In this document: positions 46,337 through 64,000 of the stretch, one piece after another
Layout: each line of letters opens with the position of its first letter
How positions within the stretch are numbered: the stretch's first letter is position 1
NCBI GenBank assembly: GCA_028716245.1
Contig: JAQUQW010000003.1
Span: 84,638-148,637 of the forward strand
Length of the DNA stretch: 64,000 bases
Reading direction: 5' to 3'
Source: Candidatus Omnitrophota bacterium
GTDB lineage: Bacteria > Omnitrophota > Gorgyraeia > Gygaellales > Profunditerraquicolaceae
Program-made: the position numbers and the translations under genes
The notes under the pieces: generated by a model
Database searches by the model: none
Told to the model about the DNA's origin: nothing
The model's input: only the letters and a program-made list of their open reading frames with translations

Positions 46337-49300
46337 CTATAAAATCATGACCTGGTTATGGTAGAGAAAAATATGCCAAATTAAAATTAATAGCAATGAA
46401 TTCACGGAGAATAATAATTGTTTTATAGATATATCCGCAGGGATACTATTTTCAACTGTTTCCGCTGGTAATATCTCCTCTTGCAAAACTTGCCCCTCTT
46501 TATCTTCGATTTCTTTTTTTCTTACCGGCCACTCTTCAATACATTCTTTATTTCTACTTACCTTCTCTTTGTTCCCAAAGGGATCTTCTACCCAGTATTC
46601 TTTGGATAATATATCTTCAAATCTTTCGAAACTGACTTTTTTAAACTCTTCATAACCTTTTTCTGTATGAGTATCTGATGTATTAATTAAATAACTTTCT
46701 CTCCAAAGACAATAATCTTTCCATTTTCCAGGATGTAATTTTCCGCCTAGGCGTTCTTGCTGGTAAAAAATATAATCAATCATAAATTGTATTAACCGGT
46801 GATGATAACCATTTTTTTCAGAATCTTCCTGGTTCTTTTTTACTACTTCTAAAAGTTCCGGCCGTTTTTGCAAATCTATAGCCCCATCCTCTTTTAAAAC
46901 TAAGCTAGCGTTGAATCTTTCTTTTATAGTTTGTGGTAAAACGATAAAATCCTGTGTCTCTCCAGGCTGCCCCTGTCTTGCGGCCCTGCCCTTTAATTGA
47001 TAATCAAGCCTTAAACTTATTTGGCTTAAGGTTGTTGAAACCACAAATAGCCCCCCAAGCTTTACTGCTTCTTTAGTTAATATAATATCAGTACCTCTCC
47101 CTGCTATATTAGTAGACACAGTCACTGCGCCGATTTTACCTGCCTCTTTTACAATCTTTGCTTCATACTTTTCTGTTTTGGCATTAAGCACCTTATGTCT
47201 GATACCTTTTTCTTTCAGCATTCTGCTTAACCGCTCAGATTCACTATCCGATGCTGTCGCTGCTAATACAGGTCTTTTCGCTCTGTATAACTCTTCAATC
47301 TTATCAACTAGAGCTTGGTATTGAATTGTAGCGTTTAAAAATATTTTTGGAAGGAGGTCATCTCTTATGTTTGGTTTTCTTGTAGGAATTACGACTACAT
47401 CAGAAATGCCATAAATTCTCTTTAATTCCTCCTTTGCGAAATTAAAATCAGCCGTGCCGCTCATACCAGATTTTTTCCTGTAAAATTGGAAGAATATTGG
47501 AAGGGGCAATGTCACTAAACGAGTATCTTTTTTAGTGTTGAGATTTTCTTTTAATTCCAATAATTGGTGAATTCCTAACGCGTACCTGCTATTTGGTTTT
47601 TTTCTTCCGGTTGACTGATCAATTACTTTAATCTCTCCTTTTTCCACTAAATAATGCACTCCTTTGCGATAGGAGATTTTTACCTTAAGATATGCTTTAA
47701 TAAACTCCAAATTGGTTAATATCTCAAGCGATACCGCTGTATATTTACTGGAATATCCATACTCAATGGCATCTTTTGTACCATATTCTTTTCTCCATTT
47801 TTTGGTTAATATTCTGTTTACATTTACCTCTCCTTCAGAGGTTAATGTAATATTTCCTTTTTCAATTACATAGTCACTGCCTAATTTTAATTCTTCGGCT
47901 ATCTGCTTTAAATATTTACCTTTGCCCCTTCCTACAACATAAGCAAACCCTAACGCTGAACCATTTAGATCAATAAATGAATAGTCTACTTCATCCAAAA
48001 TGGCAAATGTCTCTGCTAATTGTGAATAAGATAAGTTTCCTCTAAGATAATCAAAACCCGTACTGGGAGTTGTAAATACTATATCTTTTTTGTAGACTTC
48101 TTTTCTAAATGGCCCTTCTATCTTTAAAATAATGGCCTTGATTGTTCTAAATGGAGATATTAACGAGAAAAGTTCTGGAATCATTAAATAAGCAAATAAA
48201 ACCATTGCTATGACAAAAATTCCAGAAATTATCTCGCTCTCAGAAAATAGGAACGCAATACTAAAAACCATAAACAAAGGCATAAAAGACATACCAACTA
48301 AAAACACACCTAATAATATAGAGCCTAATACATCAGCAATATTATTTTTACTTATTCTTTTAGCTGTGCCTACGTCTTGTATTAGCCCAACGCTCAAACC
48401 TAGAAATTCATATAGCTTGCGTGTTTTTTGATAATCTCTCTTTGCCAGATAATCGTTTTGAGTGATAATATGCACTTTTTGGCTGCTTAAAGCGTGTAAA
48501 TAAGCGGGTAACATCGCAACGTAGGTTTTACCCTCTCCGGTTTTTATTTCAGCTACTTTACCTTGATACATTACTATGCCGCCAATCATCTGCACATCGT
48601 ATAATCTTATCCCTTTAAGCCGCCAAAATGCCTCGCGCACCACAGCAAATGCCTCGGGTAAAATCTCATCCCGTGTTTGGCCTTTATCAAGGCGAGCCCT
48701 AAATTCATTTGTTTTTTCCTGTAACTCTTTATCGGAAAGCTGCCGCATTCGCGGCTCAAAGGAGGTTATTTTTTCTACAATCGGTAGGAGCGCTTGAATT
48801 TTTATTTGGTTTTCTTCGGTGAGCTTCTGGATACTTTTTTCTAAATCTCTTTGCTCTTCTTCAATAAGATTCCGTAATTGTTTACCCGGAGGGCCGGTCT
48901 CTTTACCACTCTTTGCTAAATTCATCAAAAGTTTTTTTAACATATCTGAAATAATTGGGAACGTTTCCATTTTTTCTGCTTTTTCTCCCATCCCGCCGTC
49001 TAATTGCTCTTTAGCAGCAACATTTCCGGAAGTAAAAACAGATAGAACATTGTTATTATCCTTTGCTATCTCATAATTAACACTACGCTCTATACCCCAC
49101 CCGCTCTTAATCTCCATTCTCGCTTCATCCAAAAAAATCAATTCTTTAGAATTCAATTCTTTTAAAACCCGCACACTACTTTCCAAAATATATAAGTTAA
49201 TAGGAAAATCTAATATCGCGCCTGAAGCGCTCATCCCGTTTATTTTTCTTAAGAGGTCTCTTTCGGCAGGAGAAAGTATTTTATATGTATTAAACAGCTT

Positions 49301-64000: not shown

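Follow-up and report, generated by a model that had tools for sequence, protein, structure and literature searches.

The 64,000-nt stretch of DNA analysed here in its entirety (called the window below) belongs to a Candidatus Omnitrophota bacterium (assembly GCA_028716245.1, contig JAQUQW010000003.1, positions 84,638 to 148,637 of the forward strand), and its subject of interest is a giant open reading frame (ORF) on the minus strand whose product is punctuated by the tripeptide Asp-Gly-Gly (DGG). Read from its first ATG at 63943, this ORF (46337..63943) translates into 5,868 amino acids (aa, the numbering used throughout); no stop codon is found upstream of that ATG and the frame stays open to the end of the window (46337..64000, 5,887 codons). 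The full-length protein, P0001, is 6,949 aa long; it is encoded on a 151,874-bp contig and named by NCBI 'MAG: protein kinase [Candidatus Omnitrophica bacterium]' (MAG, metagenome-assembled genome). DGG delimits 24 modules in the full protein, of which the window holds 20 complete ones plus the tail of another, and the upstream 1,081 residues of P0001 add three DGG, for 23 sites in all. Only three Pfam units are present in the giant ORF, a protein kinase domain, a Peptidase_M48 domain and a SecA-like region (aa 5041-5624). A scan of all modules at E <= 1 yielded no further family, and there are zero Pfam matches at this threshold in the N-terminal 1,113 aa. The ORF looks like as many different proteins as an operon would encode, joined in frame: besides some 20 orphan modules, it comprises a putative kinase, a peptidase-like domain of caspase fold, a metallopeptidase of the M48 type and a SecA-like ATPase anchored in the membrane. 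Its main features are as follows.

46337..64000, minus strand: giant ORF, C-terminal 5,887 codons of the 6,949-aa protein
60110..60592, minus strand: protein kinase domain (Pfam), aa 1118-1278, within the module of aa 1027-1346
53444..53923, minus strand: Peptidase_M48 (Pfam), aa 3341-3500, with HEIAH followed by two membrane helices
46340..48991, minus strand: SecA-like terminal module (Pfam and membrane-helix prediction), aa 4985-5868

The excess of DGG in this ORF, to which the first-pass annotation had drawn attention, is exactly as large as announced: there are 20 copies in 5,868 aa when 1.35 would be expected from composition (Poisson P = 5e-17), and 23 in the 6,949 aa of the full protein against an expectation of 1.61 (the Poisson P ranging from 5e-17 to 5e-19). 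No other tripeptide of the giant ORF comes near this enrichment (P is ~5e-6 for the runner-up), and the tripeptides that differ from DGG by one substitution (EGG, NGG, DAG, DSG, DGA and DGS) are at background level. The other 22 ORFs of the window (~16,000 aa, 1013-45788), which provide the background count, contain 0 DGG versus 4.57 expected (P = 0.01), and this absence may correspond to the avoidance of a cleavage motif. The sites are distributed as follows.

63848..63856, minus strand: DGG at aa 30 (GACGGCGGC)
62903..62911, minus strand: DGG at aa 345 (GACGGCGGC), then Met
62303..62311, minus strand: DGG at aa 545 (GATGGCGGC); a membrane-helix module begins just after
61607..61615, minus strand: DGG at aa 777 (GACGGCGGG)
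60866..60874, minus strand: DGG at aa 1024 (GATGGCGGG), start of the kinase module
59906..59914, minus strand: DGG at aa 1344 (GACGGCGGG), end of the kinase module
59555..59563, minus strand: DGG at aa 1461 (GATGGCGGC)
58625..58633, minus strand: DGG at aa 1771 (GACGGCGGC), start of module 12 (homologous to module 2 of P0122, see below)
57947..57955, minus strand: DGG at aa 1997 (GACGGCGGT)
57407..57415, minus strand: DGG at aa 2177 (GACGGCGGG)
56984..56992, minus strand: DGG at aa 2318 (GATGGCGGC), after the recurrent tail SIGKRGRLSASVLQ
56672..56680, minus strand: DGG at aa 2422 (GACGGCGGC), start of the caspase-fold module
55757..55765, minus strand: DGG at aa 2727 (GACGGCGGT), start of module 17 (74-80% identity to module 8 of P0122)
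55025..55033, minus strand: DGG at aa 2971 (GACGGTGGT), the sole site without GGC
54953..54961, minus strand: DGG at aa 2995 (GATGGCGGA)
53978..53986, minus strand: DGG at aa 3320 (GACGGCGGG), start of the M48 module
53321..53329, minus strand: DGG at aa 3539 (GACGGCGGC), between the M48 module and module 21 (69% identity to module 6 of P0122)
52919..52927, minus strand: DGG at aa 3673 (GACGGCGGG)
52025..52033, minus strand: DGG at aa 3971 (GACGGCGGG)
48992..49000, minus strand: DGG at aa 4982 (GACGGCGGG), then Met; precedes the SecA-like module and is also found in P0002

Most intervals between sites measure 100-325 aa, in line with the ~100-400 aa first reported, and the full range is much wider (24-1,011 aa). 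K (9), Q (3), S (2) and L (2) are found before the Asp of the 20 sites and A (5), S (3), M (2), G (2) and I (2) after the second Gly. In a position profile the flanks are nearly uninformative, apart from an AAA Lys codon before the motif and a codon starting with G after it, and one of the junctions reads ENKKDGGMAEAK. When searched against itself the giant ORF gave no significant match and no internal repeats, so the motif is not carried by repeats. RTX calcium-binding repeats (GGxGxD, in tandem nonapeptides) were rejected as an explanation on the same absence of repeats and on the spacing of the sites. As a separate observation, three junctions from two genomes (56993-57040 in the window; 1150-1210 and 6830-6890 in locus L007) have a longer conserved tail of the form (T)VS-SIGK-G-LSA(R/S)(I/V)L(Q/N) ahead of DGG. 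A shorter 'DDSILQDGG' is found at aa 2995, and in more distant relatives the equivalent place is occupied by 'SARR(L/F)(P/N)G' instead of DGG.

One relative is P0122, recovered by an exhaustive HMMER search with aa 2425-3541, a protein of 3,920 aa from another Omnitrophota MAG (GCA_018897555.1, locus L007) that has lost its N-terminus at a contig end. It contains 8 DGG versus 0.93 expected, DGG is its top tripeptide too, and all 8 are encoded by GAY GGC GG. Comparison of the two proteins by BLASTP revealed four homology blocks, each starting or ending at or near a DGG:

window module 12 corresponds to P0122 module 2 (64% identity, BLASTP)
window modules 17 and 18 correspond to P0122 module 8 (74-80% identity, BLASTP)
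window module 20 (M48) corresponds to P0122 module 4 (25% identity, BLASTP)
window module 21 corresponds to P0122 module 6 (69% identity, BLASTP)

In window numbering, these blocks are ordered 12, 17, 20, 21 in the window protein and 12, 20, 21, 17 in P0122, with unrelated modules in between, and units bounded by DGG have therefore been re-ordered in evolution. A second relative, P0002, is a fragment on a 2.5-kb contig (GCA_023143035.1) with 49% identity over the SecA-like part, which retains a DGG (GACGGCGGC) just upstream of that part within flanks that differ; like P0004, another relative of the SecA-like part, it comes from an Omnitrophica MAG. In the sequences compared, DGG punctuation is a trait of a narrow lineage. 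The other searches were less productive. A word-index protein search with a 5,000-aa query matched only the source protein itself, with the SecA-like query it listed three relatives, short and partial, ahead of canonical SecA proteins, and with a 301-aa query over the best-conserved module it returned no match at all, source protein included; this method also missed P0122 despite 62-80% identity over hundreds of residues. A profile search of genome contigs with the SecA-like tail found unrelated ATPases only, and two metagenome scans, for a degenerate DNA version of DGG[SA]A[EA]KQFVE and for a module-17 profile, found nothing.

These results dispose of the simplest explanation, namely that the motif arises from chance, composition, internal repetition or faulty assembly. 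All that speaks for this is the general possibility of chimeric MAG contigs, and it is refuted by the Poisson probabilities, by the lack of significant self-matches and by the occurrence of the same motif in two independent assemblies, which leaves it with a virtually nil probability.

Do the sites fall between modules, as the first-pass annotation had supposed? The kinase, M48 and SecA-like matches each lie within a single DGG-to-DGG interval and none is cut, the probability that 23 random sites would all miss these three domains being 0.027. Since residue 13 of canonical SecA aligns with aa 5044, the equivalent of the SecA initiator Met is 48 aa after the DGG at 4982-4984, and the first strand of the caspase-fold domain begins 7 residues after a DGG. 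Taken with the homology blocks edged by DGG in P0122, this makes it well supported that DGG sites mark real module boundaries.

What kind of boundary this is can be approached through the constraints on the motif. When 32 DGG sites from three genomes are pooled (the window protein and loci L007 and L001), D, G and G are each invariant while the flanks vary freely. In the giant protein, hydrophobic residues make up 21% of the six residues after GG, against 37%, a value as low being obtained in 0/5,000 shuffles. In the pooled set, L, F, Y or W is never found immediately after GG (0/32 sites), versus 6/32 both at the residue before D and at the second residue after GG (Fisher P = 0.007). One way to account for these sites would be an uncleaved structural hinge or turn, in which an Asp cap and two glycines connect successive modules of one very long membrane-anchored chain. 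Their position between modules, the hydrophilic flanks and the flexibility of Gly-Gly would suit such a role, no Gly-Gly-specific protease has been found in the locus, and the literature leaves room for giant Omnitrophota proteins working as single chains. However, linkers normally tolerate substitution, which seems difficult to reconcile with three invariant residues at 32 sites in three genomes and with the lack of enrichment of EGG, NGG, DAG, DSG, DGA and DGS among freely varying flanks. Moreover, a hinge would leave unexplained both the absence of DGG from the other ORFs and the lack of L/F/Y/W after GG. We therefore consider it unlikely, while still deserving serious attention. The combination of three invariant residues with free flanks, the neighbouring proteins without DGG and the presence of an internal caspase-fold module argue instead for recognition of the motif by an enzyme rather than for a passive linker.

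It is also necessary to ask at which level the motif is selected, because the first-pass annotation had stated that every copy is encoded by the octamer GAY-GGC-GG and had envisaged a sequence maintained at the nucleotide level. The first claim holds for 19/20 sites, the exception being 55025-55033 (GAC GGT GGT). The example positions that had been given for the octamer were off by 1-14 nt, its true plus-strand starts being 62904, 59907, 58626, 57948, 57408, 56673, 55758, 53322, 52920 and 52026. There are 21 octamers on the minus strand of the window and 0 on the plus strand; 19 are within the giant ORF, all of them in frame, and the two others (27354 and 38625) are at chance level. A Chi-like or strand-biased genomic octamer was accordingly rejected, 19/21 copies being in one gene and one frame and the remaining 46 kb containing 2, about the number expected by chance. 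In the position profile a sharp eight-base block, GAC GGC GG, stands out, and all the variants seen at DGG sites are synonymous (GAT, GGT and any third-codon wobble). The octamers being in frame, their variants synonymous and the one-substitution neighbours of DGG at background level, the selected unit is the tripeptide.

The near-constant codons of the motif reflect in part a general codon-context bias of this genome. In the ORF as a whole GAC encodes only 19% of Asp residues, compared with 38/70 in Asp-Gly pairs elsewhere in the window, and GGC is the first Gly codon in 57/97 other Gly-Gly pairs. Avoidance of a Shine-Dalgarno-like GGAGG was tried as the cause of the GGC preference and rejected, GGA-GG being found at 25/97 other Gly-Gly pairs, which equals general GGA usage. 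Between the window gene and the P0122 gene, 81% of identical residues share a codon (synonymous sites are unsaturated) and DGG codons are conserved no better than others, so orthologous DGG sites are not independent evidence. The wobble positions were tested against context-matched controls with orthologous sites counted once, i.e. on 24 independent sites. The first Gly is GGC in 23/24 (P = 5e-5), Asp is GAC in 19/24 (P = 0.008) and the last base of the third codon is C or G in 20/24 (P = 0.002). A real excess of GC-ending codons is left over at each of the three wobble positions.

The signal could alternatively reside in the DNA. According to this explanation, GACGGCGG would be an in-frame junction word kept identical for the exchange, deletion or insertion of modules by recombination, and DGG merely its translation. 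It would be consistent with the module order, which differs between P0122 and the window protein and has DGG at the edges of the blocks, with the wobble bases richer in G/C than their controls and with the opposite strand devoid of the octamer. Nevertheless, all 19 octamers of the ORF are in frame with only synonymous variants, which points to the peptide; eight bases are insufficient for homologous recombination; neither a recombinase nor a repeat structure is associated with the sites; the GAC and GGC preferences are largely general; and orthologous DGG codons enjoy no special conservation. Maintenance at the nucleotide level hence has weak support overall, and a purely DNA-level origin is improbable. 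A translational signal, either a programmed pause or a 2A-like 'stop-go' skip of a peptide bond that would separate successive modules or help them fold, could likewise invoke the skewed codon choice, which chiefly concerns the first Gly codon. A final Gly is likewise a feature of viral 2A sites, which operate between polyprotein modules. However, 2A requires a conserved upstream nascent-peptide sequence, which is missing here, no Pro follows the motif, and 2A-type skipping is not known to work on bacterial ribosomes, all of which makes this idea very improbable indeed.

If the motif is read by an enzyme, the giant protein itself offers a candidate in module 16 (aa 2425-2729), which has homologues in other large proteins and the following features.

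55964..56671, minus strand: predicted caspase-fold domain (clan CD, DUF4347/CHAT-like), aa 2425-2660, from homologues and AlphaFold
56447-56449, minus strand: His2499, invariant in the module 16 family
56183-56185, minus strand: Cys2587, invariant in the module 16 family

The window module 16 has no Pfam match of its own at E <= 1 and its link to clan CD runs via homologues: P0138 passes the Pfam cut-off for DUF4347 (6e-9), two others match CHAT weakly, and GHG and SC are invariant in 10 sequences of the family. When the family profile was compared with PDB sequences, the four best matches were caspase-3/6/7, although weak (E 0.014-0.15), with the GHG of the family aligned on the catalytic SHG of caspases. 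AlphaFold modelling was usable only once homologues had been added, the pLDDT rising from 36 without an alignment to 77 with it (pTM 0.75). In the resulting model, His75 (of GHG) follows strand 67-73 and Cys163 (of SC) follows strand 152-161, each residue closing a central strand, which is the clan-CD arrangement. As modelled, module 16 is predicted to adopt a caspase-type alpha/beta fold of the DUF4347/CHAT branch of clan CD, and on these features it is a candidate for the processing protease; another candidate protease is the M48 module.

The best reading of DGG, to which we assign a probability of roughly 0.5, is that it represents the cleavage code of a bacterial polyprotein. The giant product would be a precursor from which a site-specific endopeptidase, recognising DGG, releases the modules. 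The best candidate for this enzyme would be the clan-CD (DUF4347/CHAT-like) module that the precursor itself contains, working either in cis or in trans, much as the cysteine protease domain within MARTX toxins does. The processing site mooted in the first-pass annotation is thereby retained as the preferred functional interpretation; that cleavage takes place, at which bond and by which enzyme is what we infer. The cut could fall after GG, as in double-glycine and ubiquitin-type sites, or alternatively after Asp, as for caspases, legumain and glycosylphosphatidylinositol (GPI) transamidase, since Asp would suit what several clan-CD enzymes prefer at P1. A cut after GG is weakly favoured because L/F/Y/W is never found right after GG and is found at both neighbouring positions. 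If this is where the chain is cut, their absence would fit an avoidance of destabilising N-termini.

Several findings weigh against cleavage at DGG. The module 16 family is devoid of an invariant Arg of the type that confers Asp specificity on caspases, and no copy of module 16 is present in the available part of P0122. No C39, ULP/DUB-like, JAMM or papain-like domain or motif was found in the giant protein or the scanned window ORFs; for C39, the profile PF03412 had no match in the giant ORF and 20/22 other ORFs (4203-4895 and 4892-5590 being outside the scan). In P0004 the 300 aa that precede the SecA-like part are free of DGG, and the distant giant proteins P0123 (4,203 aa) and P0129 (6,941 aa), which share one module with the window protein, are not enriched in DGG. 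The multi-enzyme fusions encoded downstream of the giant gene (FBA+GlpX and TIM+GAPDH+PGK) have no DGG either, so fusion in this genome is not always accompanied by the motif. Finally, a purely peptide-level signal does not predict the excess of GC-ending codons at the sites. An extended model would meet this last point by giving the junction two levels, DGG as the cleavage code that yields ~24 proteins from one ORF, cut by its own caspase-fold module, and GACGGCGG as the in-frame splice point for the exchange of modules between giant genes. If true, the splice-point role would account for both the re-ordered modules and the GC-ending codon excess, and for the time being this composite is a doubtful conjecture.

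Other modules deserve a description. The SecA-like module has SecA_DEAD, preprotein-binding and P-loop domains (PF07517, PF01043 and PF21090 match) and gave no match to the scaffold/wing domain (PF07516). Its first ATPase domain carries an insertion of ~80 aa with two or three membrane helices (aa 5202-5263), common to P0002, P0003 and P0004, and a further membrane helix is at its C-terminus (aa 5842-5861). Modules 13 and 17 (57900-57955 and 55710-55765) open with near-identical peptides, DGGSAEKQFVEMLKK and DGGSAAKQFVETLEE, and have in common a later 'INLKTG(K/E)IT' stretch, the remainder being too diverged for BLASTP; judging from these peptides, they look like an old internal duplication. 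The start of module 19 (aa ~2998-3102, window 54000-54950) is a domain found in the giant proteins P0123, P0124 and P0129 and also in small stand-alone proteins (P0125, 164 aa). Its homologues bear a metallopeptidase-like motif, 'IIHEFGAYLGLPH', which reads 'LLIRFGDYL' in the window copy, and this copy is probably inactive because the His and Glu of the motif have been lost.

Directly downstream of the giant gene, on the same strand, are five very large ORFs (23653-45788), none of which has a DGG.

1,279-aa ORF, minus strand: class-II FBP aldolase (FBA) and GlpX FBPase
2,267-aa ORF, minus strand: PPDK-like with large insertions
1,493-aa ORF, minus strand: TIM, GAPDH C-terminal domain and PGK
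1,758-aa and 531-aa ORFs, minus strand: no significant Pfam family

The giant ORF and the 531-aa ORF are separated by 548 nt, a stretch that contains a near-consensus sigma-70-like promoter sequence (45978-46005, minus strand; TTGACA, 16-nt spacer, TATACT, 11/12 matches) and no terminator-like hairpin. The minus strand carries all 23 long ORFs of the window, which has a negative GC skew over its whole length and in which no tRNA genes were found. Further along, ORFs 14882-16207 and 16149-17333 overlap by 59 nt (16149-16207), and the upstream one may have a miscalled start because it begins with TTG.

The closest known counterparts of the window protein are the 'Archaeovorins', giant SecA-bearing proteins of Omnitrophota whose proteolytic processing has been proposed, with cleavage points stated to be unknown, a situation that makes structure prediction by natural fragments impossible (West-Roberts et al., 2023, bioRxiv 10.1101/2023.11.21.568195). 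Both are very long multi-enzyme ORFs of Omnitrophota, with divergent SecA_DEAD and preprotein-binding domains near the C-terminus, no scaffold/wing and adjacent membrane helices, and glycolytic and PPDK domains are found in the same gene or cluster. However, Archaeovorins measure at least 30,000 aa versus 6,949 aa here, the glycolytic enzymes of the window are encoded in separate ORFs next to the giant one, and the glycosyltransferase, glycoside hydrolase and methyltransferase content of Archaeovorins has no equivalent in the window protein, in which Pfam recognises the kinase, M48 and SecA families and nothing else. Pfam likewise showed no C39, S8, glycosyltransferase or dockerin domain in it, and the C39/S8 peptidase that Archaeovorins have near their N-terminus is without match in the N-terminal 1,113 aa of P0001 or among its precomputed families. 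The regular DGG punctuation, for its part, is not described in the Archaeovorin work.

Among cleavage systems, MARTX and large clostridial toxins process themselves with a clan-CD cysteine protease domain of their own (family C80), which is activated by inositol hexakisphosphate (InsP6). The resemblance lies in a large multi-module precursor that has its own caspase-fold His/Cys domain and short conserved linker sites, but here the domain is nearest to DUF4347/CHAT with no C80 match, the site is DGG instead of Leu followed by a small residue, and the ~24 modules far exceed the number in MARTX. Double-glycine sites (those of C39 bacteriocin exporters, ubiquitin-type LRGG, LxGG of the coronavirus PLpro and GG-X of the African swine fever virus (ASFV) polyprotein) have the same invariant Gly-Gly followed by a variable, mostly small residue, and in the coronavirus and ASFV cases Gly-Gly is used repeatedly to cut a polyprotein. 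Unlike them, the window protein has an invariant Asp as third residue before the putative cut and lacks the leader pattern (hydrophobic at -4, -7, -12 and -15; LSxxELxxIxGG), showing only a K/Q preference before D, and their C39, papain-like or ULP-type domain was not found here. With caspases, legumain and GPI transamidase, which cut after Asp/Asn before small residues, the common points would be the predicted fold of module 16 and a D-G-G that would fit P1 Asp and small P1' and P2' residues, the differences being the invariant Arg that the module 16 family does not have and an S1 pocket to which no residues could be assigned.

A search of the literature found no published report of DGG punctuation, and junction motifs are not mentioned in a 2026 survey. 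What is proposed here as new is the motif itself, DGG, marking specific junctions in the putative polyprotein of a cellular organism. This bears on a recent puzzle, whether the products of giant Omnitrophota genes act as single chains or as cut pieces. The DGG junction predicts the termini to be sought in metaproteomes and the fragments to be folded or expressed, and it names a candidate protease module. If cleavage does occur, these bacteria would possess a cellular counterpart of viral polyprotein expression, using a code that differs from the Leu sites of MARTX and joining modules that have been reshuffled in evolution.

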